64,000 nucleotides of DNA from a virus (lineage: Duplodnaviria > Caudoviricetes), in the IMG/VR virus record IMGVR_UViG_3300033067_002132, positions 32,001 to 96,000 of that record, one strand, 5' to 3'. A program made the position numbers and the translations under genes. Below, one piece after another: positions 3,753 to 57,563 of the stretch (position 1 is the first letter of the stretch; the number at the start of each line of letters is the position of its first letter). The notes under the pieces are model-generated. The model was not told where the DNA came from and ran no database searches. It saw nothing but the letters and a program-made list of their open reading frames with translations.

Positions 3753-4601
3753 TTGTAAATCTTTATTTATTTTACAACTATGATGGGTTAAATTTTCTTT
3801 TTCATTAACTAGGTTCCATTTTCTTTCTAGAATAGGTAGGTTATTATTTAATGCAAAGTTCTTAAGTGCAATAAAATTTTGTTTTCTACAAATTCTTAAA
3901 TAAACATAACCACGTTTAGTAAAATTGACACTAATACCATCAAAACCAATAGAATTTAATTTTTCTTTAATTTGTATTAAATAATCATGCCAGTTTTTAT
4001 GTACTTCTATTCTTATAAAAGTTACATTATTTTTTCTTTTAGAAAATGTCCCATCACCATCAATAATACCTAAAAGAAAACTTAAAAAGAAAATATCATT
4101 ATTAATATTTAATTTAATAGGTGGATTATATGTTTTCGGTAAATTTAAATCTAAACCTAATTTATTATAAATAATTTTTGAATTATAAATATCCGCACAA
4201 TTTAGAATACAAATTGATGTTTGGATATTATTTATTATTACAATTTTTGTTTTTACTTTTATATTTAATATTTTTCCTAATTTTTCTAAATGATTTTTAT
4301 CTCTATTATTTAATGTAATTTTTAATTCACCTCTGTTTTGACCAATATATCCATCAGCAAGAATAAAACCTAACCAATAATAAGAAAGAGAAGATTCTTT
4401 TGTTAAAAACTCTAATTTATAGTGATTAATATCTTTTAAAGATTTTATTTTAAATCTAGAAGCGGCGGCTTTTAATGTTTTATCTTTAATATTTAATTTT
4501 TTAGCTAATTCTTTTTTATTACCTAAAGGATATTCTTTTTTTAATAATTCTATTTTTTCTTCCGTCCATTCTATTTGAGGTTTAATATAATGTTTTATCA
4601 T
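3720..4601 (-). mobile_element. Free-standing double-motif LAGLIDADG homing endonuclease
   Basis: YWLGFILADGYI and FLLGIIDGDGTF motifs; N-terminal HTH (WTEEKIELLKKEYP); C-terminal L.RKW. Confidence 0.85.
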
Positions 4602-15548: not shown

Positions 15549-16254
15549 GAAAAATTAATAAAAAAAAGCGTAAGAAAATTGATAAAGTTCCGCCGTTACC
15601 GTACAGTTTTGCTTATGGGCAAAATTTACCTAGTTATCCAAATGATGTTCCCTCTTGGTATTACGCAGGAGCAAATAAATGTCTAAATTAAATACAGATT
15701 TTTCTGATTTAGATTTACAATATAAAATGATTAATGAATCGGTGACGTTTCTTGAACAAGAAATTAATAAAACTTATAAAGAAATAGAAATCGCCGAATC
15801 TAATTTTGATACGGAAGAATTAAAAGTTTTATATCACCGTTTATATTTCAATATCATTAAATTAAATCTTGAATTAAAAAATCTTGAAAGATGGAAGAAA
15901 GAAAGTATCATTCTATGTCAAAATCAAAAAAGCGAAAGTCTCCTAAAGGATATGAAGTAATTTCTGTCGATAAAAAATATCGATATGGGGTTTTTGACTA
16001 TAGTCCTGTAGGAAAACAAAAAGCTAAAGATTATATTATTCTTTTAAAGAAAAAAATTATTAATAATAAAGAAAAATTTAAAATACATATTGTATGAGTT
16101 TTCCTATAAAACAAAAATTAGCTTATAAATATCAATATTGGCGGCGAAAGTTTTTACTTTTTTTTGGAATCTGTCCAAAATGTGGGACTAAAGTGAATTA
16201 TACAACAATGGGTCGGCCGATTTGTCCTGAATGTTCTCGGTAAAATAAAAAACT

Positions 16255-22463: not shown

Positions 22464-23432
22464 ATGAGCAATTATTTTCCTAATATCATTGGTCAAGAGC
22501 CCGCCGTTGGACAATTGACATTTTTTCTAAATAATTATCAAAAGCACCATATTTTTCCTAATCTTTTAATCACGGGAAGTCGTGGTTATGGAAAAACCGC
22601 GATGGTACGAACTATTTCTCAAAACTTATGGAATCAAGAGGATACAGCGCATAAAAAATATGTAGAAATTACAGGCGCTGATTTTCAAAAAGGAAAAGCT
22701 CTTGAATCATTTATTGAAAACGTAATCGAACCTTATACGGTCGGAAATCAAGAATGTACTTTATTTTTTGATGAAATTCATTTGGCCGATCCAACTGTAT
22801 TAAATTGGCTATTGCACGTTTGCGAAATTAATTCTGATAATACAACTCGTAATACCTATAAGGATCGCGAATTTAATTTTGATTTTAGATATTTTACCTT
22901 TCTTTCTGCGACCACGAATCCAGAAAAACTATCTAAACCGTTAATTTCACGTTTGGAACGTATTGATTTGCAGCCATATAGTTTACAAAATTTGGCGGAC
23001 ATTTTAGTTAAACATACTAAAGATAAATTAGTATATAAAGAAAATGTTGCGACCGATATTGTTAAATCAATGCGCGGCAATCCGCGATATGTTGTGAGTT
23101 TTCTTTCTCGAAAACTATTACCCTACGTTGCAGATAAAAAAGAATTTACTCCTAACGATTGGACTGATTTAAAGAAACAGTTATCTATTCATCCTCTTGG
23201 GTTGCATAGTAACGAAATTCAATTACTTAAGTTTTTACATAAACGCCAATCTGCCACGCTTACCGAAATCGCATGTTTTCTAGGATTAGATTCTGGAACA
23301 GTGCGGCGTGACTGTGAAAGCTTTCTCCTTTCGAATTATTTAATTAGAATTGACGGAAAAAGATATATTACTGGCAAGGGTACAGAATTAATCGAAGCTC
23401 TTGACAAAACGGAAAAAGCACCTACTATTTAA
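22464..23432 (+). CDS. ruvB: RuvB-like AAA+ ATPase
   Basis: IIGQ, G.RGYGKT, FFDEIH, ATT.P..L..PL.SR, RGNPR, LGL, C-terminal wHTH with E.FL and R.IT.KG. Confidence 0.75.
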   Translation: MSNYFPNIIGQEPAVGQLTFFLNNYQKHHIFPNLLITGSRGYGKTAMVRTISQNLWNQEDTAHKKYVEITGADFQKGKALESFIENVIEPYTVGNQECTLFFDEIHLADPTVLNWLLHVCEINSDNTTRNTYKDREFNFDFRYFTFLSATTNPEKLSKPLISRLERIDLQPYSLQNLADILVKHTKDKLVYKENVATDIVKSMRGNPRYVVSFLSRKLLPYVADKKEFTPNDWTDLKKQLSIHPLGLHSNEIQLLKFLHKRQSATLTEIACFLGLDSGTVRRDCESFLLSNYLIRIDGKRYITGKGTELIEALDKTEKAPTI

Positions 23433-28468: not shown

Positions 28469-29077
28469 ATGAAAGTAACAATTGATAACGAAGATTACGA
28501 ATTAGATATCGAAAAAGCTAAAGAATTAGGTCTTCTGAAAAAGAAGATTATTCTTAAATCAGGACAGGTTTATTCTAATGGATCTGTTAAGGTTCTATTA
28601 ATTGCTGATGATAATGAGGATAGTTTTATTTTAACAGGGCGTAATGGGAATATTTGCACATGTTTTTATGATAGTCCTAAAGATATCGATATTATTTTTA
28701 ATTTAATAGAGACTAAACAATGGAAATATGTTGGCGAATTAGGAAAAGATGTATCTTTGGATTATTTTAAGACTTAATTTATGAAAATTACAATTGATAA
28801 GAAAGATTACGAATTAAACGTGGAAAAAGCAAAAGAATTAGGTGTTTTAAATGAATATCGAGAATTAACACCAGGAGATATTTATAAAACTCCTAATGTA
28901 ACGGTGATTTTAGGATATAGTCATTACGATAGAAAATTTTATTTATTTGGTGCGACACAAAATCCGTTTCTTGGTTTCGGTGACAGACCTTTAAGTGCAG
29001 AAGATATGAAAAAATATTTAAATGAAATCGATTTTAAATTTGTTAAAAACGTTTCCTTAAATATAAATGATATTTGA
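28469..29077 (+). CDS. Tandem paralogs (28469-28777, 28781-29077)
   Basis: Shared N-terminus MK.TID..DYEL..EKAKELG.L. Confidence 0.7.
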
Positions 29078-29108
29078 CAAAACGGCAAATTGGATCTAAT
29101 ATGTCTTT

Positions 29109-29216
29109 GGTCCGCGGGGACCAGATAAAACCGCGCCAAGAGTCTCAATGAGGCACAAGATTCTTGGCTAATAAATGGGCCTCCATCCTGCGGGTGATGG
29201 TACAATGAGACCCGCA
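29109..29216 (+). ncRNA. Candidate ncRNA of three tandem H-type pseudoknots
   Basis: Starts at the predicted +1 of TTGACA-N17-TAATAT; six complementary stem pairs. Confidence 0.6.
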
Positions 29217-29900
29217 ATTATTGTAAGTAAAGAGTTAATTAGTATTAATTCTTGCCGGGGGTAAGCGTGACTTTGAATCCGCCGCGCCCCCGGATTTTAA
29301 TTTCCAGAAATTATGAACGAAAATCCTAGAACCGATGTCGATATACTAAATTATTTTCATAGTTTAAATACGTTCGCACACAGATTAGGATACGGGGGCA
29401 TTACTCTAACTAAAAAATATTTTAGCCTTACTAAAAATAAAACTGAATACCGTTTTGATAAATTAGATGAACTTTCGGTATTTCTTTGTGAAAAAAAGTT
29501 TGAATAAACAAAAACATGAATATTCGCGCATTCCTTAAAAATTGTAATCCTTTTGGTAAAAAGAATTGGCCCAATAAATACGTGATTTATAAGTTTAATC
29601 CGCCGGTATATGATGGGCCATTTTCCGATGAAAAAGCTTCTGAGGTTGCCTGTGAAAGTAGATGTTTAGCGCCGCAAATGGCGAATCAAATTTATATTTC
29701 AGATAAAATTCCTAGTAACGCCGAACATATTGATGGAAAACATCTATAATATGAATTCTTTTGATAAATATAAATATTATTGTATCTTTGTAGATTGTCA
29801 GCAAGAACAAAAAGAATTAAAAGATTGTCTGGATTTCGCGGTATCCAATGGTTATAATTTAGCAGCGGATAAAATTAAAAATCTGATTCTTTAGATTAAT

Positions 29901-32460: not shown

Positions 32461-32489
32461 CGAAAGGGAAAAGAGATGGCATGATTAGA

Positions 32490-32850
32490 ACGTTGACCGG
32501 GAGTAAGACATTAGACGCTAATAACGGCTAATCTCGAAAATGAAACCGGGATTTGACATATTAAGAGTAAATGATGGCGCTATTAAGTCGTCTCTATAGA
32601 AAATTTTAGCCAAATCTAGGGGAATTGGATACCTTGTATCCGACCCGCTTTTGAAATACTAGACTTAGACGAAATTGAAAAGCTAAAGACTTTGGGGGTT
32701 GGGAGGAACTTAAAACCCCCTGCAATTTTTAAGAGAAAAACATCGGCCGATGGGAGAGTTTAAAAAACCATAACTATCCACGCGAGATAGGGATTAAATA
32801 AAAATATTCTAGCCCTGGTCGGGCTTTGATGCGTATTCTCTCCTCTCTTA
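32490..32850 (+). ncRNA. Candidate structured ncRNA modules
   Basis: ORF-free, downstream of TTGACG-N17-CATGAT; multiple stems and pseudoknot pairings. Confidence 0.5.
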
Positions 32851-32899
32851 TTACTAAATGCGGATTTGACAAAAGAGAAAAAGGCGGTAAGATGATTTC

Positions 32900-33636
32900 A
32901 TGTTAGTGAGGCATAGCTGACATTCACTTTCAGATTTAATAGATTTCCTAAGTTACCGTAAAAGGAACTAAAAATCTTTTAGGGTTTAGGCTAGAATACC
33001 TAAAATAGCACGTTCTCAATTGCTAATCTGACGAACGACAAATTAAATGATTAGCTAAAGGGCTCTGTATTAAAAATCTAGAAGTGGTGAAAGAGCATTA
33101 AACTTCTATATAATTTGGCCGTGATGATCGTACCAAATTTGATTGTTTTATTAATCATCTTAAAAGAAACCGGAATAGCCATACTAGTTAGGTATTGTTC
33201 CTAACGGATTAGTAGAAATATTAATCAGATTGTTCAAGTCGGTCATATGGGCTAACCCCATAAAATGGAGTTCCCCTTGCGAGGATAGAACTATAGGTTT
33301 CTTTTTATAAATTTTCGGTTATACCATACGAAACTAAGCTGAGTAAACGGTTAAAGATTTGAGGTTTAGCACTGTACAGGATCTCAAAATTCACTGTTGA
33401 AAGTCGAATATAAAACAGATATTCCTTAGCGGGAAAAAGGGTTTTATTGTTTGTTCTATAAATGGGCAGGCTAATATATAGTAACTTAGCCTTAAAATTT
33501 TAGGTAATAAATGTTGCAACGTTTATTTCCTAGTTTGGTGAAAACCAAGCTTACTAAGTAAATATACGTAATAAGGTGGAATAACCATTAATTACTATTT
33601 TCAATTGTGTGTATGCGAGCAAGGTCGCATATTTTA
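32900..33636 (+). ncRNA. Candidate large ornate ncRNA (~735 nt, GOLLD/ROOL size class)
   Basis: ORF-free; sigma70 promoter at 32866; nested long-range helices, GNRA-capped hairpins, one pseudoknot. Confidence 0.65.
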
Positions 33637-34770
33637 CTTAATAATTTGCACTGTGCTAAAGCCTCCCGTCTAATTAACGGTCCTATCAGCCGAGGCAATC
33701 CCGTATGATAGTAGTCGGGCCAAATTTAACAAAAGAATAATTATATGAGCGCAAAAGGTGTCCATGATCGTTGTTCAGAATTAAAAGATAATAAAGAAAC
33801 TCGCAATCTTAAAAACACTAAACGATGGCTTAAAAGAATAAAGCATCGAAAAGATCGGCGTGAGAATAAAGTAACAGAAATGGAATAATTATATGAATGG
33901 CAAACATCTTGGAGAATTATATTTAAAGTTTCATAAAGGTGATAGTCTTACAGACGCCGAATTGAAAGAATATAATAAATTTTGCGACGAAATGGCGAAT
34001 TTTTGTGGTGTTACAGGAAATTCAATGGTTCTGCCTCGATTTGCAATAGATTGGCAGACTACTGAAAACCAAATGTTTCATCGGAAAATTGATAAAGAAT
34101 AATTTTTTAAATTGTAGTCAGAGAAATCTGATGGGATAATGCGGAAAAAGATATACTAGTGAGATGTGTATCCTGTTGCCGCTGACCTAATGGGGAAGAA
34201 CCAGGCATCCCGGGAAATTGCTCACCAACAGCCTTACAATTTATTATTTGACAACACAGAAAAGAAAGTATATAGTCTTAACCATGACACCAAACGATAT
34301 TCAAGTAGGTAAAATTTACGTTAACTCTATTAAAAACCAAAAATATTTGGGTATTGGTTTACGAAAAATGTGGGAAGGAACCTTTGGTAATAAAGATTCA
34401 AATTTTGAAGAAAAAAGGCTTGTAATTATAGAAGGAAATCCTGAGTATATTGGATTAATTGTTCAATCTCCCGAAAATTGTTCAGAAGAATATTGGGATG
34501 ATTTCCGACTAGATAATAGTTAATTTTAATAGTATATGCGGACAGGCAAATGTGGGATAATTCGCCTAGGCCAATGCGACCGCCCCCACTATACTATTTT
34601 ATATAATTGTAAAAGATTTGAGAGTTAGAACGGTCAAAACATGCAAAGAAATCTACATTTCATTTGCAAACAATACCGGCATAGTGTAGAATATGTCTCT
34701 CAGATGGAATAATAGATACGACAGTTATAGTTGAAACATTTTTCTAAATAATTGCCGTTGACTGATTTTC

Positions 34771-38312: not shown

Positions 38313-38436
38313 GTTAATGTAGAAAATTGGCAAATCAGGGGGTTTGTACCGAAAACAGAAATCACAGGGAAGACCGCCGATTAATGATATAGCTGTTAGA
38401 CATTAATTTATGTAGGTTCGACTCCTACCATTAACT
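38313..38436 (+). ncRNA. Class II tRNA-like RNA with inflated anticodon loop
   Basis: GTTAATG/CATTAAC acceptor, TGGCAAA D-loop, GTAGG-TTCGACT-CCTAC T-arm; no 7-nt anticodon loop and no CCA. Confidence 0.6.
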
Positions 38437-45122: not shown

Positions 45123-45216
45123 GGTCCCATAGTTTAATGGTAAAACGCACGGCTTATACCCGTGATAAGCTCTAGATTTGGGCACGTTCTAGGTTCGAAT
45201 CCTAGTGGGACTACCA
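45123..45216 (+). tRNA. tRNA-Ile(TAT) with long variable arm
   Basis: GGTCCCA/TGGGACT acceptor, CACGG-CTTATAC-CCGTG, ~24-nt variable region, CTAGG-TTCGAAT-CCTAG, CCA. Confidence 0.85.
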
Positions 45217-46397
45217 ATTTTCTAAATAATATGAATACCATTACCACAAAGGCCAATCCTGTTATTAAAACCCCTAGAATTGGAGATCTTTATTTAGATA
45301 GTAATGAAGAATTATATATTTTAGCTAGAGTAGATCTAAACGTTTATTCCGCGATTTCTTTGAAGGATGGGGAACCTTGGACTTCGGACCCAAGACCAAC
45401 AGTTCAAGAAGCAATTTATGGCTTGATTTTTTGTAAAAGGAACGCTAAGATCACTATTGAATGAACGCCACCGAAGCAAATAAGAATAGAAAGATCGGCG
45501 ATAAAATTACCTTTAATTTGGATCATAGCCCGCATGCAATGGGCGAGGGAATTATCGTAAGATTCGACGATGATTACTGTATCGTAAAAATTACTAAAGA
45601 TTGTCAAGAATATGGTCTAAAATTTGAATGCGGGCGCGATATCGTTGTCTTTTTCGACGAAATAACGAGTAAATAATTATGAAATACATTCTCACCCAAT
45701 TTTTTCCTGAATTATCTTTTATTGGTAATGCGAGGGACGCACAATTAATTTTGAATTCTGAAATTCTTAAATAATGAATAATTTCGACCAACTATTTTTA
45801 TTGTTTTTCATCGTAATGTTTGTCTTGATTATTCTAAAAGTTACTCAGAATTAAATTATGCACGCGCACGATCTAAATAAGCTAATAAATAAGGTAATTG
45901 CCGCGAAAAGTGGGGATTCTATTTATATCGGCGAGTGTATGTCAAGTGAAGAATTGGTGGATTTTTATCTTTATCTTTTGCGGCGCCTAATTTTTCCTGT
46001 TGTTAATTCATATAAAGAGGGCGAAAATCTTTATTATATTTTAACAGTGAAGAAAAAGTAGTGGACTATTGACAAACAGAAAAAGAGATTTAGACTGGAA
46101 AAACATGAAACGCGCATTTATCCATCTACCTAACGGTCAAACGTTTGAACTAAACAGAACGAGTAATGAAGAAATAACAGGCGTTGAAGTTGTCCAATTA
46201 CGAAGCTCTATGAAGGAAGCAGTTTCGTTTAGTTCCGAAGCTTTTACTGGGCCTAATTTCGATAAGAAAGTTATTTTGGTTCTGTGGGGCGAGGTACTCA
46301 AAAATTCTTTTATCACGATCGAGTAGAAACCTATTGACGAAAAGTAAAAAAGGATTTAGCCTTTTCAAGTCGAACGAAACATTAACTGAAAAATTCA

Positions 46398-46943
46398 ATG
46401 AATACCGATACCATTGCCCCTACGCCGACCGCCGAAATCGTCTCGCCCGAGACTCAGGAAGCCGTTAACGCTCTGCTTGCCAAGGTTGACGCTCCTCCCG
46501 TGCAAGACGCGGTTGAAGTCGCGCCGCCTGTTTCTGAAACGGTTTCCGCGCCCATTGCGGAAATCATCTCTGCCCCCGCCGAATCGGTTTCAGCGGAAGT
46601 TCCCGCTCCCGCGCCGATTGCTGAAACTACCCCCACCCCCGCTCAGGTTGCGGCGACCCCTCCCGCCGCAACCCCTGCCCCTGCCGCCCCTGTGATTGAG
46701 GCACGCAAGGTTTCCGTCGAAATTCTTTTCCCTAACAAGGAAGAGTTTACCAAGCGGGATATTGAAGTAATTAACGAGACGAATTACGTCGGCGCAAGTG
46801 AGCTGATTAATATGCTCGTTAGTACGGGTCAGGTTGAAAAGGTCCGCAAGCAGCCTCAGGCTGGACGTGGCAAGCCCACCGATATTTTCCGGTTGACGCC
46901 CAAGGCGCCGATTGCGAAAAACAAGAAGAATAACAAGAAGTAA
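46398..46943 (+). CDS. Pro/Ala/Thr-rich N-terminal region plus winged-helix-like C-terminal domain
   Basis: GRGKPTDIFR wing motif like 31501; own promoter and terminator. Confidence 0.55.
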   Translation: MNTDTIAPTPTAEIVSPETQEAVNALLAKVDAPPVQDAVEVAPPVSETVSAPIAEIISAPAESVSAEVPAPAPIAETTPTPAQVAATPPAATPAPAAPVIEARKVSVEILFPNKEEFTKRDIEVINETNYVGASELINMLVSTGQVEKVRKQPQAGRGKPTDIFRLTPKAPIAKNKKNNKK

Positions 46944-46960
46944 CTTCGTCGGTCCTTCAC

Positions 46961-46992
46961 AGGGGGAGGGGGTTTTACCCCCTCCCTTTTCT
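46961..46992 (+). terminator. Intrinsic terminator
   Basis: G-rich/C-rich hairpin followed by a T run. Confidence 0.7.
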
Positions 46993-47230
46993 TCTCTCTC
47001 TATGAATATAAATAGGGAAATCATACTAGCTTCGCCCATACTCAAAAAGCAATGGGAACAATCGATGCTATCTATGGAAGAATTTATTCTAAGAGCGGTG
47101 GATAATTTTGTGGTAAATTCGAAAGGGGGATCGAATGGTATTTCTTCTAATTTTGGCTCTAACGGTAGTGCTGGGTGTTCGTCTCTAAACTCTTGACATC
47201 GAATTCGGTTTTGAATAATCTATTGCCCGC

Positions 47231-47893
47231 ATGAGAGTTCTATTCACCCGCATTTCATCTAACAAAAAAACGGGTCCTATTCCCGTCTCTCTTACAACCG
47301 CAGACTCATGCCCCGACGTTTGTCCTTTGAAGAAAAAAGGTTGCTATGCATTTTTAGGGTATATAAGAATTCATTGGGATCGTGCCAATAAAACAGGTAT
47401 GAAATGGGGCGAATTTTGCGTAGAAATAGCTTTATTGCCTTCGGGACAATTGTGGCGCCACGATCAGGCGGGAGACCTGCCAGGAAAGAATAACAAAATT
47501 GACGCGCCCAAACTCGCTTTATTGGTTGAGGCTAATCTTGGCAAAAAAGGATTTACTTATACGCATAAGCCTTTAACAAAAGAAAATAGCGCCGCGATTA
47601 AGTATGCGAATTCTAATGGTTTCACGATCAATCTATCGGCCAATAATCTAAGGCACGCAGATGAATTAGCTAAAAAGAACGTTGGACCGGTTGTGACGTT
47701 GCTACCAAAGGATCAAATGAATAATTGCTTGACCCCCGAGGGGCGCAAAGTTATTGTCTGTCCCGCAGTCACGCGAGTAAATACAAATTGCATGACTTGC
47801 AAGCTGTGCGCAAATGCGAAAAGGTCAGTTATCATAGGTTTTCCTGCGCATGGCGTGGCCAAAAACATTGTGGACAAGATCGCGAAAGAATAA
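47231..47893 (+). CDS. Cys-rich Gp88/DUF7227-like phage protein
   Basis: S.NKKTG.IPV, SCP..CP....CYA, RH..AGD, CPA......C..CKLC, IGF.AHG. Confidence 0.65.
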   Translation: MRVLFTRISSNKKTGPIPVSLTTADSCPDVCPLKKKGCYAFLGYIRIHWDRANKTGMKWGEFCVEIALLPSGQLWRHDQAGDLPGKNNKIDAPKLALLVEANLGKKGFTYTHKPLTKENSAAIKYANSNGFTINLSANNLRHADELAKKNVGPVVTLLPKDQMNNCLTPEGRKVIVCPAVTRVNTNCMTCKLCANAKRSVIIGFPAHGVAKNIVDKIAKE

Positions 47894-48171
47894 GTATATG
47901 GAAAAGAAATCGACATCCCTAATTTCGCTTCGTTATCGTGGTTTTAAGGTTAAGTATCTATGTCCCGGAAACGTGCGGGGATCGCGAGTTAAGATTATCG
48001 ATTTGCGACATGACGAATCGGTTACGCTTTGTTTAGAGGATGAATATCGGGATTCTAGCGAGCAAGCTTACAACTGGTTAGAAGAACACGGCATTAAGAT
48101 TGTCGCTACTATGCTGGAACGAAATGAGGAAGTTTTCTTGACTGAGGATTTCAAAACCCATATTGTCTAGG

Positions 48172-48894
48172 TTAAAGGATTTTTGATCCTTTTTTCATGT
48201 TTTCTTCTTTCCATAAAGGTTGCAAGTTAGTATAATGAAAACATTTATGTAAATTTTCCTCTTTTGTAAGATCAAAAGAAACACAAGGAAGAATATGATC
48301 TATTTCCCATTTTCCATAATTATCCCAAGACATATTTTCTTTAAATTTCATTTCTAGATAAGACTTAAGATAATCAATAGAACAACCAAGATAAGCAATA
48401 GTTCTCTCTCTGTTGCAATTAAAGATATTTCTAATATATTTATTTAATCTGCGGCGTAAATTAGATTTAATTCTATATTGAATATTATTCTTTCTTCTGT
48501 TTCTATACATTTCTCTCACTTTTTCTTTATTTAATAATTTCCATCGTCTTGAAGCTTCCCTTTTTATCTTCATTTTTTCTGGATTAGCATGTCTAATTAT
48601 TTTATTTTTTAGAACTTCGCATTTCTTACAATAAGGACTAAAAATTCCCTTTTTCGATTTATTAAAAAAAGATAAATCAAATAAAGTCCCACAAAATTTA
48701 CAAATTTTTTCTGTTCGTTCTTTTTTCTTTTTAAATCTTTCTCTTTCTATATTATTCCTTCTTAAAATAGAATAAATAGTAGTTTTATTTACATTAAATA
48801 GTTTTTCTAATTCTTTTCCTTTTATATTGCTTATATAAGCTTCTATTATTTGTTTTTCTTTTTCTTCAGAAGTTTTATTATGCGTTTTTCTCAT
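48172..48894 (-). mobile_element. HNH/endoVII-like homing endonuclease with N-terminal HTH
   Basis: WEIDHILPC.SFDL.KEEN..KCFHYTNLQPLW..EN..KG; likely start 48894. Confidence 0.8.
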
Positions 48895-48970
48895 ATAAGA
48901 AATTACACAGAAAATTAGGGTTTCCATAATAATAGTTGACACAAATGGTTTTTTGTGAGAAACTCAAAGT

Positions 48971-49390
48971 GTGATTAAACATTTACTTTCTTTTTTATTG
49001 TGTTGTAATGTTTTTGCAGGTCAATATAATGAAAATGAAATAGTAGCAACCGTTTTAATTTTAGAAGCAGGCGGTGAAAAAGACGATAGATGTATGTCCG
49101 CCATTTACGAAGTAATTTGTAATAGGCAAATAAAAAGACATTTATCAAAAATAGAGGTTTGTTTACAAAAATATCAATTTTCTGAATTTAATGATGGAAA
49201 AATCAAAGAAAAAATAGCGAAAGCAAAAAAGCACCCAAAGTACAAGAAAGCCCTAAGTTTAATTAGTATGAAAACTGATTATACTCAGGGCGCGACGCAT
49301 TTCTACTCTACTAATATTGCCAAACCATACTGGGCAAAAAAGATGAAAGAAACGCTTGCTTTAGGAGCGTTTAAGTTCTATAAGGAATAA
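48971..49390 (+). CDS. Cell wall hydrolase (SleB/Hydrolase_2)
   Basis: EAGGE, VI.NR, QFS, GATHFY....PYW, FY. Confidence 0.85.
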   Translation: MIKHLLSFLLCCNVFAGQYNENEIVATVLILEAGGEKDDRCMSAIYEVICNRQIKRHLSKIEVCLQKYQFSEFNDGKIKEKIAKAKKHPKYKKALSLISMKTDYTQGATHFYSTNIAKPYWAKKMKETLALGAFKFYKE

Positions 49391-51140
49391 AATTTTATGC
49401 AAAACTTTCTAAATATCGCGAAAATAAATCGTAATAATTTTATTAAACGTTGCAGTAAATGCGACGAGGCAAAACTTGATTTATTCGAATATAAAGATAG
49501 TGTATTCGATGAAAAATTCACGCTAATTTGCTCGTGCTGTCATTACGTAATATTTAATCTCTCTGTTTTGGACTAAGAAAAACAGTTATTGACTTTCAAT
49601 CGGCGATTTAGTATTTTCTAACCATGAAACTTGACCAAGCTCTCGCCTATCTCAAAAGTTCCGGTTTCAAAATCACTCAGAAAGGCACAAAAACTTTTTT
49701 GGTTCAAAAGGGGAATGATCACCCTTGGCAAGCGGGAGAAGAGAAATTAATTAGAGTCGCGGAAAAGTACAAAAACATTCAAGAATAATTGACGCAAAAC
49801 GTTCACGTTTAAGTCTATGCAAATCACCCGCAGATCCCCCCTTACTGGCGAGAAGAATACTCGCGAAATTCCCGTGACTTTTCAAAACATAAAAGAATGG
49901 CAAAATGGTAAGTCAATTCAAGACGCTATGCCAAATCTTTCGGCGGAAGATCGAGAGTTTATTATGACTGGTTATACTCCCGAAGATTGGGCGAAAATGT
50001 TTCCGTCCGAACCTGAGAACTAAGTAAAAATTCTTATTGACGTTTAGCGCGGAATCGTTAGATTCAAGCCTATGAAATTAACTAAGTACCCTTTCAACGG
50101 AAGATGGCGCGTGGAAATGGTAGGAACGATTGACGAAATCGATTCTTATCTAATTCGCTTATACAATATTGGTGCGACAAATGCGACTTTTGAGCGCGAT
50201 CAATTGGAGACGTTTTTTCATATTGACTTGGAAAAGAAACGGTGGGAAAAGGCTTTGTCCGGCTGGTTGCAAATCCAAAATGCCGAAAACGAAACGCGCA
50301 AATTGTGCCGAATTGCACAGAAACAGCGCCGGGATAAAATTCCCATTTATTCGCAAGTAATGCAACGTTTGGCGCAAGAAGAAATCGCGGCAATTCCTAT
50401 TCCTGAAATCAAATCTGCTGTCCTGTCGCTTAAGAATCACGACTATAAGGGAATCTCTTATATCGTGGGGACCGATCATGAGGCGGAAATGATGAGTAAG
50501 GAAACGGAAATCCCTGCCAAAATTAACGTAAAGAAAATGACGGCGCGAAATTTTTCTTGCAACGCAACGGCAAGCGAGTAAGGATGAAGCCATGAACGGA
50601 CAAGAATTTTCCCAAAAGCAAACGGCAATCTTTAATAAGTATGAAATCACAGATCCGAGAATGGTCTCGATTATTTCATGCCAAGCTTGGGAGGATAATC
50701 ATTCGGACGGTTATGAAGCCGTCCTAGTAAAAACTGAAAAATATTGTCAGTTTACTGAAACGATCTTGAGTGCGTTTTTCGCTAGTATTAAATTGCGCTA
50801 AACAAGAATATAAGCCATGCCTCATTTGCCCATTTCTTTAGCTCTTTTGACAGATTTAGAAAGAGAAGAAAGCATAAGACGGGAAAGAACGGAAAAATAT
50901 ATCTTTGAAATAAAAGAAGCAAAGAAAGAATTCGAAAAAATGAATGAAATACATCACGGTTTTATTGGTTATTGGCCCGAAATGAACGAGCAAAAAAAGG
51001 CCAAACTATCCAGCCCTAAATGGGCCGATTTTCGGAAAAAGGGAAAAATCAAAGGGTGGCAGCGGAATAAACGTTGACGCGGAAATTAATTTAGGATAGG
51101 CTTTCGGTGTTGTGAGATTGGAGAGAGTTGAAACAACAAC

Positions 51141-51284
51141 GGCGGGGTAGTTTAATTGGTAAAATATTTTCCTTTTTTTGGTAGGCAATAGGGATCAATA
51201 TTGCCAATATCCGAAACGAAATCAAGACTGATCCTCTTGAATAAAATAAGGAAAAAGTTGCGGGTTCAAATCCCGCTCTCGTCT
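51141..51284 (+). ncRNA. tRNA scaffold whose anticodon loop is replaced by a two-hairpin kissing-loop insert
   Basis: Acceptor, D and T arms intact; TTTTCCTT/AAGGAAAA stem encloses ~75 nt. Confidence 0.7.
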
Positions 51285-52458
51285 GCTCCAATAATTAGCT
51301 AAAGTTAAATAAAGCTAAAAAAACAGAAAAACGAGGCGTCAAATTATACGCCTACACAACACAAAATGGAATATAAATATCTTCCCCATTACGACGATAA
51401 AACGTCAATAAGATTCGGCGAACTACCTTTGCCAAAGGAGATTTTTGCGCGGCAGGAATTAATGCGCGAAATTGGATTTACTGCGGGCGAGGAAGTTTGG
51501 AAGAAAGGGTATGGATACGTACCCATTTATTATTTCGTTCGCGAATTAACGAAAGACGAGCAAAATCTTTTGTGCCTTTGCCCCTTGACGGATGAGACGG
51601 CCGATGGTAAATTTCGTTCATGACGCCAATTACGCTGACCCCCGAGCAATTGCTTAACCTGCTTAAAGATTGCAAACGCGAAAGCGTTTTGTGCTGTAAT
51701 AGTTCGCTGCCAATTAAGCTTGTTTTGATCACTGAAATGCGTGAGGGACCGACAGGCTATTTGCCGCGCAGTATTTTCGGTGTTTATTACAAAAATCAAG
51801 TCGGGCGATTTTTTAATTCTTTGGAGGAAGCAATTGAATGCTATTGCCGAATTGAGAAAGCGAACGAAAGATTTCCTTGACGCTCAAAGACATTAGTTAA
51901 TACTCTCTCGCATGAACTCCACGATACTCAAAGTCTCTTATACTGGAACGCAGATTATCATCGCGAAAACGCTGGCCGCGATGCGAATTAAGAATCCCGC
52001 GCCGATTAAGTTCTATCCTACCAGAGCGGCGAGAGGAACTCATAACGTTGAGCGTATGTTCACGGTTTACCTTGAAGTTGAGACCACCACGGGGCGAATT
52101 CTGAGCGGCGGCGTGCAAGTTAACTAAATCTTTTATGGTAACAAAAACCTTTGCTTTCCTTCCTCTTAATAACAAGCAAGCAACGCCCGAATTTCGCTCT
52201 TTTATTTTGTCATTTATTGAAGGAATTAGAGTAGCGGAATCGGCACGCGGGCACGTTGTGCGAATTGAACCTACACTAAGCGGGGATTGTTCCGGTTGGT
52301 TGCTTGTATGCGAAGCGGAAATGGGAAAAGTTATTGGACAGTATTTGTCAAATCTCAATATTGAGCTTCGCGAGATTTGAAAACGCCCACTTGACAAAAA
52401 GCAAAGTCTCAGCTAACCTTTAGAAGTCGGTAGGAAAACAACGAAACGAAACAACACT

Positions 52459-52806
52459 ATGAAGAACGAAACCTTTGTGAACAGTCTCTTGAATGCGTCG
52501 GTCCCTACGGGCAAGATCGATTTGGCCGCGGTCCAGGCGGCGATTCAGGAAAAGAACGATGAGAACAACCGCGCCAAGATCGAACGCGCCCGCAATCTTT
52601 TCGAACGGTTGAATGGGGAAGTCACGTCCGCCGTGGAAAGCCTGCGAATCATTCGTCAGCAGGAAAAGGAAGCGAAGCAAACCGTGATTCGGCATGCTGC
52701 CGCTTTCGCCACGTTCAAGGAAACGGGCGATCTCAATAAGGTCGCGGCGATCCTGTACCCCGGCGAGAAGATCGCGCAGGAAAATTTCGTCCGCCGATAT
52801 TCCTGA
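52459..52806 (+). CDS. Hypothetical coiled-coil protein upstream of the pistol ribozyme
   Basis: ORF with own promoter TTGACA-N17-TAACCT at 52391. Confidence 0.7.
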   Translation: MKNETFVNSLLNASVPTGKIDLAAVQAAIQEKNDENNRAKIERARNLFERLNGEVTSAVESLRIIRQQEKEAKQTVIRHAAAFATFKETGDLNKVAAILYPGEKIAQENFVRRYS

Positions 52807-52817
52807 TCGCATAACAA

Positions 52818-52887
52818 ACTCGACTAGGCGAGTATAAATAGATAATTAAGCCTAGTGCGTTTGCGGGTAAAACCCCGCAAGGTTTAT
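52818..52887 (+). ncRNA. Pistol self-cleaving ribozyme
   Basis: ACTCG-ACTAGG-CGAGT-ATAAA-TAG-ATAA-TTAA-GCCTAGT-GCG-P3 hairpin-GT-TTAT; matches the pistol layout element by element. Confidence 0.88.
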
Positions 52888-53020
52888 GATATTAATTATA
52901 TATTATCTCCGAATTGCAAGTGCCTTGCGCCGCGCAATTTATCCCTGAAACAACAGGGGTTAAAAGCTTCAAGCTAAAGGAAAAAAAAGCCTTCGTGCTG
53001 TCGGTGTTTGTTTCCTTCGT

Positions 53021-53061
53021 TGAGTGGGGCGGGGAGAGAAATCTTCCCGCCTCATTTGTTT
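53021..53061 (+). terminator. Intrinsic terminator
   Basis: TGGGGCGGGGAGA-GAAA-TCTTCCCGCCTCA hairpin followed by a T-rich tail. Confidence 0.7.
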
Positions 53062-53097
53062 ATTGACATGCGCGGTGCATTTAGCTAATTTGATCGC

Positions 53098-53607
53098 ATG
53101 CAAGACCTGACCGCTTCTCTCGCCGATAGTCTTTCACGCAAACACTATCGCAAGACGCCTGCCATGTTTTCCGTCATGACTCTGCGCGATAAACTTCCTT
53201 TCGATTCTAAGCCTCTCGCCGATGATCCTAATAAAATTGCCGATTATTGTCGCCAAGCAATTATTGGCAAAAAAGGGTACAATCCCGACGTGGAAAGTTG
53301 TTGGGTTATCGTAATGAATACGCGCCGACGAATTGAAGGGCATTTTCTAGTAGCAACAGGAACTCTCGACACTTTGTTAGTTCATGCTCGCGAAGTGTTT
53401 CGCGGCGCTATTCTTGCCAATGCTGCGGCGATTGTTCTTATGCATAATCACCCAAGCGGCGACCCGACTCCGAGCGAAGCTGATATCCGCGTGACCCGAG
53501 AAATGATTAGAGCGGGCCAACTACTAAAAATCGAAGTATTAGATCACGTAATTTTAGGAGAACCTAAGCATTGCTCGCTTAAGGAATTAGGGTATTTTAC
53601 TTATTAG
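53098..53607 (+). CDS. radC: RadC/JAB-domain protein
   Basis: HAREVFR.AI, HNHPSGDPTPS.AD, LDHVI. Confidence 0.92.
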   Translation: MQDLTASLADSLSRKHYRKTPAMFSVMTLRDKLPFDSKPLADDPNKIADYCRQAIIGKKGYNPDVESCWVIVMNTRRRIEGHFLVATGTLDTLLVHAREVFRGAILANAAAIVLMHNHPSGDPTPSEADIRVTREMIRAGQLLKIEVLDHVILGEPKHCSLKELGYFTY

Positions 53608-54078
53608 GCAAAATTTGCCTATTGACTTTTCATTTTCGTTCTGATAGCTTTAAATTATGCAAATCGACAAGCAACTACTCATCGCCCGCAACACGCTTCT
53701 CAACCTGAACGAAGAGTTGGCTGGATATCGCATTTACTTCATGGGTGATAAATTCCGCGAGGATACCACGGTACAAGTTCATGAAATTCTTTCGCGAATT
53801 CTGATCCTTAAAGACCAAGTGGAAACCGCATTGGAAAGTGTCACAATGCCTTTCAAGGTTCAAGTGGCGGCGGGCGAATTGAATCCTGGCGATAAAGCTT
53901 TTTTGATCGAAACGAATCCCGAAATGGGAATGGAAGAAACCCTCGACTGGACCTGTACATATATCGGCCAAGAAAAGGTTCTTTTCGAATACGTAAAACA
54001 AGGAAAACAAACGAGAACCACAATGCGGAATAAAACTGAGATTGTTTGGAAACTGCGCTAAATTAAATTCGATTGAAA

Positions 54079-54294
54079 AATCCCCGATTCTAGAATTTAT
54101 TGCTAAATAAAAAGCCTACTCAAATTCCCTGGTTCTAGAAAGTCGCGCTAAATAAAAGTACGTAGCGCGGACCCTGGCCGATTGGGCGCATAGCGGGCCG
54201 AACTAGCCGGGGCAATTAGAGTAGAAACCCTTAAGAATTAAAACTATGGTAAAAACCCTTAAGAACAGGCGTTATGGTAAAAACAACTAAGATC
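54079..54294. repeat. Two sets of imperfect direct repeats
   Basis: 2x AAAT.CC..TTCTAGAA...GCTAAATAAAA; 3x GTA(A/G)AAAC..TAAGA. Confidence 0.55.
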
Positions 54295-54367
54295 AGCACC
54301 TAGAAGAAAAGAGCTAAGGAAAAGAACTATTGCAACGCCAATGGCTTTCTGCCAAGCTTTCGCTCCT

Positions 54368-54916
54368 ATGAATCCTATTGAAACCCTAAAGACATTCGCG
54401 CACAATCCTCCCGGATTTGCCAGTTTTACCTATACGGCAAAAGGTAGCGGGGAAACTGCGCGGCATACCGTCATCCTCGGATTTGACTACAACAAGAGTG
54501 TGGAAAAGAGCCTAACCGATTTGGCGTGCATTAATCGGGCGGATTTCCCCGCAATTTCGGATGAATTGTGGCCCGTTGCCGTTTCGGAAATTCGGGCCAG
54601 TCTCGAAAAGACGCTGGCCGCGCACGTAAGGGGCGAGCAAAACGCGGACTACACAAAAAAGGATCAGTATTTGTCCCTGGGGTTTTCTGGTATGCACGTT
54701 AACCTTAATGACGGAAGCCTACAAGTTTTCGGGCTGGCGCACGCTAAGACTGTCCTGGTGCCCGGCGAATATAAGCCCGTCAAATCCCGTCCCCTCACGC
54801 TGGCCAAGGAAGCCATCCGCAAGACGCTGGCCGTGGGAAAATTCCGCGAGTTTGCCTTTGACTCCGGGACGATACACACTGTCCGCATGAACGGTTCGAC
54901 CCTCGAAATCGAGTAG
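54368..54916 (+). CDS. Conserved hypothetical phage protein
   Basis: Long ORF behind a TTGCAA promoter; YK.VKS..LT.AK..IRK.L...KFR.F. Confidence 0.65.
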   Translation: MNPIETLKTFAHNPPGFASFTYTAKGSGETARHTVILGFDYNKSVEKSLTDLACINRADFPAISDELWPVAVSEIRASLEKTLAAHVRGEQNADYTKKDQYLSLGFSGMHVNLNDGSLQVFGLAHAKTVLVPGEYKPVKSRPLTLAKEAIRKTLAVGKFREFAFDSGTIHTVRMNGSTLEIE

Positions 54917-55347
54917 GGGGAAAGACTATGCTCTTTCTCCTAATCGTTATCATTATCATCCTTTGTGCCGCTTACCATGAATAGAATAAAAAACGCTATC
55001 CTAATTCTTTTTTGGGTAGGCGTAGGATTCGGCGTTATTTTCGTAGTTTTTACCTTTATTTCGAACCTTTATTCTTCCTAGTTATGAAGCTAACCTTTTG
55101 CCTTGTATGGGGTCGCAATCGCCAGTTTCGCCTAAGCGAGCAAGGCTTAGCTGTGCTGCGCGTCCTTCGTCCCTTTGGCCCCTTGCCGTTCCTGCGGTGG
55201 GATTCCGTTGTGCGATTCGATCCTGGCCTTGCGTTGCTTGCGTTGCTCTTTTCGCTCCTTTTCGCATTTACCTATTGACGGCAAAAACCGTGTCTGATAC
55301 CGTTTCCTTGTCGGTCGCAGAAACAACCAAAACAAATTAGATAGAAC

Positions 55348-56166
55348 ATGAAAGCCAAACTTTACTTGCACGCTGGCGGAGCCCTTACAACGTGGGACGC
55401 GCTTAATGCTCTGCCCACCCCGCCCGCGATTGGCAAACACGTCCCTGTTGGACACGCGGCCTTTTTGGACCGCATCGAAAGACTGTTGCCCGTGGACGGA
55501 TTCAGTGTGATCGAACGCCAGATTGCCGTCGCAAAGGACGGGGCGCGGATGTTTGCGCTCCTTCAACTAGCCCACCCTAGCCTAACGTGTGGCGATGGGT
55601 CAGGGTATATCATGGGTGTGCGAAACTCTCACGACAAGGCGTTTGCCGCTTCTGTTACCGTGGGCCGTTGCCCCTTCGTTTGCGATAATCTCGCGTTTTC
55701 GTCCGGGGCGGATGGTGTTGTCGTTAATCGGCGCCATATTGGGGGCGTGCATCGTGACTTGGGCGGAATGGTTATGGAGTTAATCGCGGGGCTCGCCGAT
55801 CGATTCCGGATTACGGATGCTCGGGACGCTTGTTATCGGGGCGCTACGCTTGACAATCGGGACGCTGATCACTTCGTTTTAGAGTTGTACCGCAACGGGG
55901 CGATTGGTTGGGGCGAAGCACGCCGTGTTCTCGCGGAGTACCACGGGACGGCCGTTAACCCCGACAAGGTTGAATTCCGTCATGCGGAATTCGAACCCCG
56001 GACCGCCTATTCTCTTTTCAACGCTTTTACGCAAGAATTGAAGGGAATTGACGACAAGGGTGTGGCCCACCCTAACGTTTGGGAACTCCCGAAGGCGACC
56101 GCAATCGCGTGCGAAGTGTTCGACCGCCTTTGCACCTTCAACCCCGCCGGGGCGATTGTCGTCTAG
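55348..56166 (+). CDS. DUF932-family protein
   Basis: G.RNSHDK, FVCDNLAF, RH, T.YSLFNAFT..LK. Confidence 0.8.
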   Translation: MKAKLYLHAGGALTTWDALNALPTPPAIGKHVPVGHAAFLDRIERLLPVDGFSVIERQIAVAKDGARMFALLQLAHPSLTCGDGSGYIMGVRNSHDKAFAASVTVGRCPFVCDNLAFSSGADGVVVNRRHIGGVHRDLGGMVMELIAGLADRFRITDARDACYRGATLDNRDADHFVLELYRNGAIGWGEARRVLAEYHGTAVNPDKVEFRHAEFEPRTAYSLFNAFTQELKGIDDKGVAHPNVWELPKATAIACEVFDRLCTFNPAGAIVV

Positions 56167-56176
56167 TGTGACTCAC

Positions 56177-56207
56177 GGGGAAGGGGGCTTTCCCCCTTCC
56201 CCCCTCT
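56177..56207 (+). terminator. GC-rich hairpin, possible terminator
   Basis: GGGGAAGGGGG/CCCCCTTCCCC hairpin with a weak tail. Confidence 0.5.
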
Positions 56208-56573
56208 CCTCAATTCCAATCTCTACCAACACTAAAAACCATGAATTCCACCATCGCGAAAAATCTCGAAAACTGGCGTGAGTCCCGCGGGCTTAACATT
56301 CGCCGAAACGAAGTCAACCGAATCCTCGCTCAACGGGTCGCAAACGAAGCGGCAGAGAACGCCCGGCGAGCCGAGGAAGCCTTGCAAGCGGGGCTTGCGT
56401 CAGATCGGATCGAACGTGCCAAACGTATGGGGGCTACCCCGCCCGCTTCTGCTATCGACGTAAAGTTTCGGCGCGGGTCGGATGGAAGGGGCGGGCGTAC
56501 TTTCTGGGAATGGATTTTCCCCAAGCAAATCGAGACTGTCGCGGCCTATTAAGTAAAAGCGCGTAGGCTATCG

Positions 56574-56603
56574 CCCCCTAGGTCACAAGCCTAGGGGGTT
56601 TTT
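56574..56603 (+). terminator. Intrinsic terminator ending the GC-richer block
   Basis: CCCCTAGG/CCTAGGGG followed by a T run. Confidence 0.8.
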
Positions 56604-57563
56604 CTTATACCCCGCCAACGCTCTAGGATCGACGGAGAAGCGTTTTGATTGCGCGACGATACCAACAGAACGCCAACAATTAATGATAACGCCAGACAAA
56701 CCGCTGTAGCTACCCTATAGGCACGGTCGATAGCGCCGAAAGCCAACTAACTGTTAAAGGAAGCTAGGCAAAAAGTGCCGTTTTGAACTAAATGGGCGCG
56801 AATAAGAAAGATCACTAAGAAATTATGCCCCCCAATTTCTTAATTAATTTTAGTAGTGAAATTTCGTAGATGCCCCCGGGGAGGTCGAATTAACTCGCTC
56901 ATTATCATTTAAACCTTTTATTATATATTCTTTCTTTCCCCACATATATATAAATCATTAATAACGTATTATAATTTAATCTTTTATTGTATATATTACT
57001 CTCTATATCTTTATCTATTATTCCTCTTCTAAAAAGAAGTCGAAGTTATAGTTTTTTGTAAAAATGGCGGGGGTCATATTTATTCTATAGCTTTATTATA
57101 GATATAGGGGGGGTATTTCTTATTCTATATAGATTTAAAAATATTAATAAATATTAGTTTTTATAAAAATGGCCCGAAGTATATTTTTTATAGACCTTTG
57201 TTATAGATACTCTTTTTTTATTCTGTGTAATAATGTTTAGATTTCCGCCCGAATATATTTAATATAAAACAATGAATACAGAAGAAAATGATGTTTTATG
57301 GAATCTTGCTAAGGAAAGTTTAGATGTACTTAAAGAACAAGATAAAAATGCGGCGCCATTAATTATAGTTGGATTTAATAATCAAACTACTCAGGTTTAT
57401 TCTTATACTCTTCCTTATCCCGGATTAACTTTATTAGATTATTCATTAATTCTTGGTTCTATTGCTAAGGATCATTTAAATACTTTTAATTATGATTCTA
57501 AAAAATTAGAACAAATAAAATTAGAAATCGCCCAAGGATTTATAGAAGGATTAAATTCAAAAA

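Follow-up and report, generated by a model that had tools for sequence, protein, structure and literature searches.

What kind of genetic element occupies the gap between open reading frames at 29078-29312, where an initial annotation had placed three H-type pseudoknots in tandem? The window, which is the whole stretch of 64,000 nucleotides analysed here, covers bases 32001-96000 of an IMG/VR virus record of 193,745 bp that is rated complete; positions are those of the window unless given as genome positions. The source is an uncultured phage lineage. Hundreds of metagenomic sequences are related to its large terminase at 57-63% identity, many of them from marine surveys, and the closest cultured relative reaches at most 32% over half its length.

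The analysis identifies a discrete, non-coding and highly structured element on the plus strand, and this element is real. In the most likely reading, to which we assign a probability of about one half, gap 29078-29312 is the gene for a stand-alone early small non-coding RNA of ~185-195 nt, which could possibly double as a leader for downstream genes. Sequence signals indicate that the element is probably transcribed.

The locus and its predicted fold

The ORF-free gap contains the whole element, and all genes neighbouring it lie on the plus strand. Immediately upstream is a plus-strand ORF of 98 aa (28781-29077) with only remote relatives in public data. This ORF and the one before it (28469-28777, 102 aa) are tandem paralogues with the common N-terminal motif MK(V/I)TID..DYEL..EKAKELG, and the pair likewise has only remote public relatives. 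The first downstream ORF, also on the plus strand, encodes 64 aa (29313-29507). Residues 22-45 of its product match a short unit of which much longer proteins from metagenomes contain 4-8 copies (best E = 2e-10), and the ORF may represent a single copy of such a repeat module. Farther downstream of the element are a tRNA-Leu at 600 nt and a gene for dihydrofolate reductase (DHFR) at 900 nt. A protein-coding reading of the gap was rejected, as its frames span only 7-29 codons and none crosses the element. A minus-strand ORF of 92 aa (28939-29217) was also discarded as coding, being an antisense overlap with the upstream gene.

The element had been described as GC-rich in an AT-rich genome, and its G+C content is indeed 50-52% against 29.4% for the phage genome. 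Both the ORF-free gap and a composition of 50% G+C in such a genome favour a small RNA gene, as does the abundance of RNA genes in this phage (~27 tRNAs, one tmRNA and one Pistol ribozyme). The ~27 tRNA genes lie within the first 25 kb of the genome. Three over-long tRNA matches with large inserts occur within the window, at 51141-51284 (144 nt), 38313-38436 (124 nt) and 45123-45213 (91 nt); ARAGORN calls only the last of these, as tRNA-Ile(tat). The window also contains a zone of very high G+C (46379-56800; up to 75% in 80-nt windows), which is mostly covered by ORFs and may have been acquired recently or reflect a chimeric assembly.

The predicted fold comprises five helical domains, and each of the first three could close as an H-type pseudoknot (pk1, pk2 and pk3). 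Every pairing initially claimed for these knots is present in the sequence, given three corrections. The first concerns pk1 (29109-29135, plus strand), in which GGUC(C) 29109-13 pairs with (G)GACC 29118-22 and (C)GCGG 29113-17 pairs with CCGC(G) 29131-35. This knot had been drawn with 4 + 5 bp. The pairing exists, but trimming to ~5 + 3-4 bp is required because the 4 + 5 bp version leaves zero nt between the stems. The resulting stems are GGUCC/GGACC and GCGG/CCGC, with AGAUAAAA as the A-rich crossing loop. Loop 1 is only 0-1 nt, which makes pk1 sterically tight, and pk1 is the weakest of the three knots because a plain 8-bp hairpin at 29106-25 competes with it. Both features count against the small-RNA reading.

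The second correction concerns pk2 (29135-29183, plus strand). Its stem 1 has 11 bp, formed by (G)CCAAGAGUCU at 29135-45 and AGAUUCUUGG(C) at 29158-68; the two strands pair as originally listed but are not exact complements, since one pair is a G.U (G29142.U29161). Stem 2 joins GAGGC of the loop (29150-54) to GCCUC 29179-83. The third correction is to the claim that the knots abut: there are no spacers between them, but pk2 and pk3 overlap by one base because C29183 would be paired in pk2 stem 2 as well as in pk3 stem 1. In pk3 itself (29183-29216, plus strand), CCAUC 29183-87 pairs with GAUGG 29196-200 and UGCGGGU 29189-95 pairs with ACCCGCA 29210-16. This is classic H-type geometry, with a stem 1 of 5 bp, a loop 1 of 1 nt, a stem 2 of 7 bp and a loop 3 of 9 nt, and such textbook proportions support the small-RNA reading.

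Beyond the knots, an A+U-rich single-stranded linker (29217-29229, plus strand) is the sole longer unpaired stretch. It precedes the two further hairpins that had been noted up to 29293, and both of these are present. Hairpin 4 (29230-29253) has a 10-bp A+U-rich stem with one G.U pair and the loop UAGU, whereas in hairpin 5 (29255-29293) a G+C-rich outer stem of 8 bp is separated by an internal loop from an inner stem of 5 bp, which is capped by a loop of 7 nt. Pairing probabilities are 1.0 for pk2 stem 1, 0.94 for pk3 stem 2 and 1.0 for hairpin 4. As the first three domains have no spacers between them, they could line up as a single rod of ~36 stacked base pairs, which would start with the very first nucleotide and take up the first 108 nt.

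Folding beyond chance and the search for relatives

To score chains of pseudoknots, we used our own simple H-type model, with stacking energies, a penalty of 9 kcal/mol per knot and limits on loop length. Pseudoknot-aware folding of this kind had been proposed as a check on the initial annotation, and it scores the three-knot chain at -31.9, against -5.9 +/- 3.9 in dinucleotide shuffles (z = -6.6; 0/1000 shuffles score as well). No pseudoknot chain on either strand of the 194-kb genome, which contains stretches much richer in G+C, scores better. The element is therefore certainly strongly folded, far beyond chance.

Most of this chain-energy signal comes from three strong hairpins. When the three primary helices are kept constant and shuffling is confined to the remaining 63 nt, the real score is reached in 15/1000 cases (1.5%), so the pseudoknot layer is only moderately beyond chance; three pseudoknots still form in 58/500 such shuffles (12%). 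These frequencies are a point against the small-RNA reading; within this energy model the tandem-knot fold is plausible, with suggestive support for the pseudoknot layer.

For nested folding of 29100-29300, z is -3.5 on the plus strand and -3.7 on the minus strand. Being equal on both strands, it does not pick a strand, and that the plus strand does no better is a further weakness of the small-RNA reading. The chain score does differ, at -31.9 for the plus strand against -16.2 for the reverse complement, and three G.U pairs in the structure become A.C mismatches if read on the other strand. The plus strand is favoured because of the chain score and the G.U pairs, together with the promoter, the U-run and terminator-like hairpin, and the direction of the neighbouring genes. 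This strand preference, the nested and chain z-scores and the top rank of the chain in the genome all argue for a small RNA.

Relatives of the element were sought by sequence, by pattern and by gene neighbourhood. A blastn search of 50,697 phage records, at E <= 0.01 and then at E <= 10, gave chance matches only, inside ICP1 coding genes, and megablast of 20 kb gave no match. Exact and degenerate patterns for pk1, pk2 and pk3 found nothing in IMG/VR, or chance matches in contigs of 70% G+C; the pk3 pattern found only four chance matches, in G+C-rich contigs, in the JGI metagenomes and no match in GTDB genomes. The flanking proteins offered as a route only the 98-aa and 64-aa ORFs with their remote or missing relatives, and the two remote-relative contigs reached in this way carry an unrelated 100-nt spacer. 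Loci retrieved by a DHFR-based search belong to unrelated phages.

A search based on the large terminase (TerL) was more productive, yielding >550 related fragments at 57-63% identity. What these relatives have in common with the phage is limited to the AAA gene and the structural block; the 23-58 kb accessory region is not shared. On this sequence comparison, the 35 kb between the AAA gene and the structural block, element included, is lineage-specific. A covariance model built from the locus had no match in the 50 of these >550 fragments on which it was run, no paralogue in the phage's own genome and no match in T5, T4, rV5, phi92, FelixO1, 121Q or KVP40; in CBA120 it gave a single spurious match of 15.9 bits in the wrong strand context. 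Pseudoknot scans detected terminators only in five TerL-related fragments, and nothing comparable in the tRNA clusters of T5, FelixO1 and phi92. Judged by these searches, the element is a new sequence type. Because no homologue was found, there is no sign of conservation and no covariation, and this lack of homologues, which counts against the small-RNA reading, is the main weakness of the case.

The same lack bears on the reading that the element has no function and is a G+C-rich remnant, such as a decayed gene fragment or a recombination scar, with accidental pairings. The absence of homologues anywhere searched, the ORFan neighbours, the lineage-specific accessory region and the noticeable share of shuffles in which G+C-rich loops pair by chance all fit such a remnant. 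A remnant would nevertheless have to produce a whole-element z of -6.6 and the best chain in 194 kb, to lie exactly between a family promoter and a hairpin with a U-run, and to lack any reading frame through it. With this evidence on the other side, we regard absence of function as quite improbable.

Promoter, terminator-like end and the leader alternative

The knots had been said to start exactly at a predicted +1, and this claim stands. A plausible sigma-70-type promoter on the plus strand (29074-29102) consists of TTGACA 29074-79, a 17-nt spacer and TAATAT 29097-102, with 10/12 matches. Its -10 hexamer ends at 29102, which predicts a start at ~29108-10, and G29109, the first base of pk1, is the predicted start 7 nt past the promoter.

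This promoter belongs to a family. Genome-wide, TTGACA-N16-18-TAnnnT occurs at 28 sites on the plus strand against 6 on the minus strand, where base composition leads to an estimate of ~9 per strand. Most family sites have TTGACAAA, an A-rich spacer and then (TG)TAAGAT or TAATAT; examples are at genome positions 3922-3949, 15747-15774, 23026-23053 and 64866-64893. The sites are located in the early, plus-strand part of the genome, typically 10-20 nt ahead of a start codon, and several lie 9-13 nt ahead of tRNA genes. The promoter of the element is unlike the others in having ~200 nt of structure before the next ORF, where 9-20 nt is usual. A match to the phage's own promoter family, followed by this much structure, argues for the small-RNA reading.

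At the other end, hairpin 5 and the U-run behind it (29255-29303, plus strand; -21.2 kcal/mol, followed by A-UUUU-AA-UUU) form a probable intrinsic terminator or 3'-protecting hairpin, as suggested by the sequence. The stem is interrupted, the U-run is short and interrupted, and a simple terminator scan makes no call, which weakens the small-RNA reading. The 64-aa ORF starts ~10 nt past the U-run, and read-through could feed it.

If these signals act as predicted, the sequence of events would involve: initiation by the host RNA polymerase at G29109 (+/- 1) from the early sigma-70-type promoter; partial termination at the hairpin and U-run 29255-29303; and read-through into the small ORFs, the tRNA-Leu and the DHFR gene. 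The base-paired 5' end and the knotted stack would then hinder 5'-end-dependent decay, by RNase E entry or by a 5' exonuclease of the RNase J type, and the 3' hairpin would block 3' exonucleases. With its 5' end buried in a helix, a stack of ~36 bp and one longer single strand, the RNA should therefore be long-lived. We infer that its action would be in trans, and that it would most likely bind protein as a scaffold or a decoy.

The main rival to this proposal assigns the structure to a cis-acting 5' leader, resembling an attenuator or riboswitch, for the downstream genes. Here, the knotted domain would respond to a ligand, a protein or temperature, and so determine whether transcription ends at hairpin 5 or continues into the 64-aa ORF, the tRNA-Leu and the DHFR gene. 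The order of promoter, structured domain, terminator-like hairpin and ORF supports such a leader. Moreover, the next plus-strand family promoter is at 32866, 3.8 kb downstream, with none between 29074 and 32866; the promoter may therefore mainly serve the downstream genes, which favours a leader role. The promoter at 32866 itself falls in a second gap free of ORFs (32461-33892, 1.4 kb), which may contain a further large RNA.

A possible switch can also be drawn. In a partial transcript, the GCCUCC at 29179-84, where pk2 stem 2 has its 3' strand, can pair with the GGGGGU at 29257-62 in the 5' strand of the terminator, and this helix could serve as an antiterminator that competes with pk2. However, the alternative helix is short, with 6 pairs of which 2 are G.U, and is made of runs of G and of C, which pair easily by chance. 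No riboswitch family matches at E <= 10, the downstream ORF, itself without relatives, does not point to any ligand, and other family promoters have leaders of only ~10-20 nt. One observation elsewhere in the window suggests that the phage may use riboswitch-like leaders: a match resembling the Moco riboswitch (52916-53088), which at 24.7 bits and E = 0.027 is below the gathering score of 36. It directly follows a Pistol ribozyme (52818-52887; 68.6 bits) and lies ahead of the ORF 53098-53607. On this balance, the leader is a possibility that we hold only tentatively.

A bolder version of either role is that the element is a phage counterpart of the 'pseudoknot stalk' of eukaryotic viruses, in which three coaxially stacked H-type knots at the first transcribed nucleotide give resistance to 5'-end-dependent decay or a tandem-knot sensor sets read-through of the terminator. 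We consider this rather unlikely. If true, either version would represent a novel class of regulatory or stable RNA in phages.

The small-RNA reading has interest of its own, as large phages have many small RNAs of unknown function and few with a defined architecture. If expressed and folded as predicted, this one would be a compact, self-contained tandem-pseudoknot RNA from an early promoter, and it would strengthen the growing case that pseudoknot modules are used by phages at the ends of RNAs. Such a candidate can readily be synthesised and assayed for resistance to nucleases, for protein partners and for control of the terminator. Its immediate value is limited, since the prediction comes from one sequence of an uncultured phage.

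Known RNA classes and comparison with known systems

Rfam 15 has no match in the element at gathering score, and at E <= 10 it gives two chance-level matches only (at 15.3 and 13.1 bits, where the gathering scores are 60 and 80). The families compared by covariance model included ribozymes, riboswitches with H-type pseudoknots, pRNA, Y RNA and large phage RNAs, and the known riboswitch and ribozyme classes were discarded as candidates. ARAGORN finds neither a tmRNA nor a tRNA at 29000-29400. These negative results at the locus agree with the initial description of an element that has no tRNA-like domain; a tRNA-like end was also rejected on the loop of hairpin 5, which does not fit a T-loop.

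Tandem pseudoknots are a hallmark of tmRNA PK2-PK4, and the element might on that account be a fragment or derivative of tmRNA that retains the pseudoknot arc. It is like PK2-PK4 in having several H-type pseudoknots in a row and a translation-related gene neighbourhood. In contrast to tmRNA, it has no tRNA-like domain and no tag frame, and both ARAGORN and the Rfam tmRNA model (RF00023) are silent at the locus. The phage has a genuine tmRNA at genome 16147-16554, outside the window, which is full-length and A+T-rich and scores 94.5 bits with Rfam; ARAGORN gives it an unusually long tag ending ...ENVLV. The element has no similarity to this RNA, and as a separate, complete tmRNA exists elsewhere in the genome, the element is not the phage's tmRNA.

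A related proposal is a repeat RNA like the antitoxins of type III toxin-antitoxin systems. In these systems (ToxIN, CptIN, TenpIN), tandem direct repeats are followed by a gene for an endoribonuclease of the ToxN/AbiQ type, and antitoxins of the ToxI type are flanked by a promoter and a terminator, as the element appears to be. The three units here are not sequence repeats and have no paralogue, and the downstream 64-aa ORFan has no ToxN/AbiQ-like match, all of which argues against a type III antitoxin. Taken as one alternative, descent from tmRNA or kinship with type III antitoxins is largely refuted and highly improbable.

Another alternative is a nuclease roadblock at an RNA boundary, resembling the coremin element (xrRNA-C / xrRNA-WCC) of RNA viruses. 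A nuclease moving 5' to 3' would trim upstream transcripts as far as pk1 and the next hairpin and stall there, leaving the structured RNA and protecting what lies downstream. In xrRNA-C and its Watson-Crick variant, a hairpin loop pairs with the 3' end of a spacer, and a second hairpin follows directly (PMC10520033, PMC10321173). Coremin/xrRNA-C stalls Xrn1 and has a first hairpin of ~4 bp, a loop of the form YGAD or YGNNAD and a spacer of 8-10 nt (PMC10520033, PMC10321173). The layout of pk1 is similar: its hairpin of 4-5 bp has coremin's GUC/GAC core, the short G+C loop is complementary, through GCGG and CCGC, to the 3' end of an A-rich spacer (..AUAAAAC..), and the stable 11-bp hairpin follows immediately.

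The likeness does not extend to detail. Although the stem GGUC/GACC fits, the loop CGCGGG has a G where YGNNAD needs an A, and the spacer is 12-13 nt rather than 8-10. The match is at chance level, as GTC-N4-6-GAC-N2-6-AAAC is expected about once per strand in this genome and occurs once, and strict coremin-type motifs are not enriched in the genome. The host, moreover, has no Xrn1, and with a promoter directly in front, the 5' end can be defined even without a roadblock. We therefore judge a roadblock of this type unlikely, and the likeness to coremin is by analogy a possible way of working, not family membership. By the same analogy, the 5'-terminal helix and the coremin/xrRNA-like layout of pk1 and the next hairpin may confer nuclease resistance on a stand-alone small RNA.

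Pseudoknots near RNA ends occur in other viruses. The upstream pseudoknot domain of the tobamovirus 3' UTR consists of three abutting pseudoknots before a tRNA-like structure. Tobamoviruses differ in that the present element belongs to a DNA phage, lies at a predicted RNA 5' end rather than in a 3' UTR and lacks a tRNA-like end. As an analogy only, the two are alike in having three H-type knots without spacers that could stack as one rod, with further hairpins after them. In T-even phages, the 5' leader of the gene 32 mRNA carries a pseudoknot of the H type at its very 5' end. Here, the downstream gene is an unrelated 64-aa ORFan, and three pseudoknots and a terminator-like hairpin lie between the start and the ORF; pk3 nevertheless has the same geometry as the gene 32 knot, with a 1-nt loop 1 across a 7-bp stem 2.

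A further comparison is with the stable small RNAs of large lytic phages, namely rnaC and rnaD of T4 and RNAI, RNAIII, RNAIV and RNA2H of T5 (NC_005859), which are encoded in tRNA regions and whose function is unknown. The element has no sequence or model similarity to these RNAs, its covariance model finding nothing in T5 or T4. We know of no report of a tandem-pseudoknot architecture among them. In its general character the element is like them: short, promoter-driven, structured and non-coding by prediction, and located in a large lytic phage among tRNA genes and small early ORFs.
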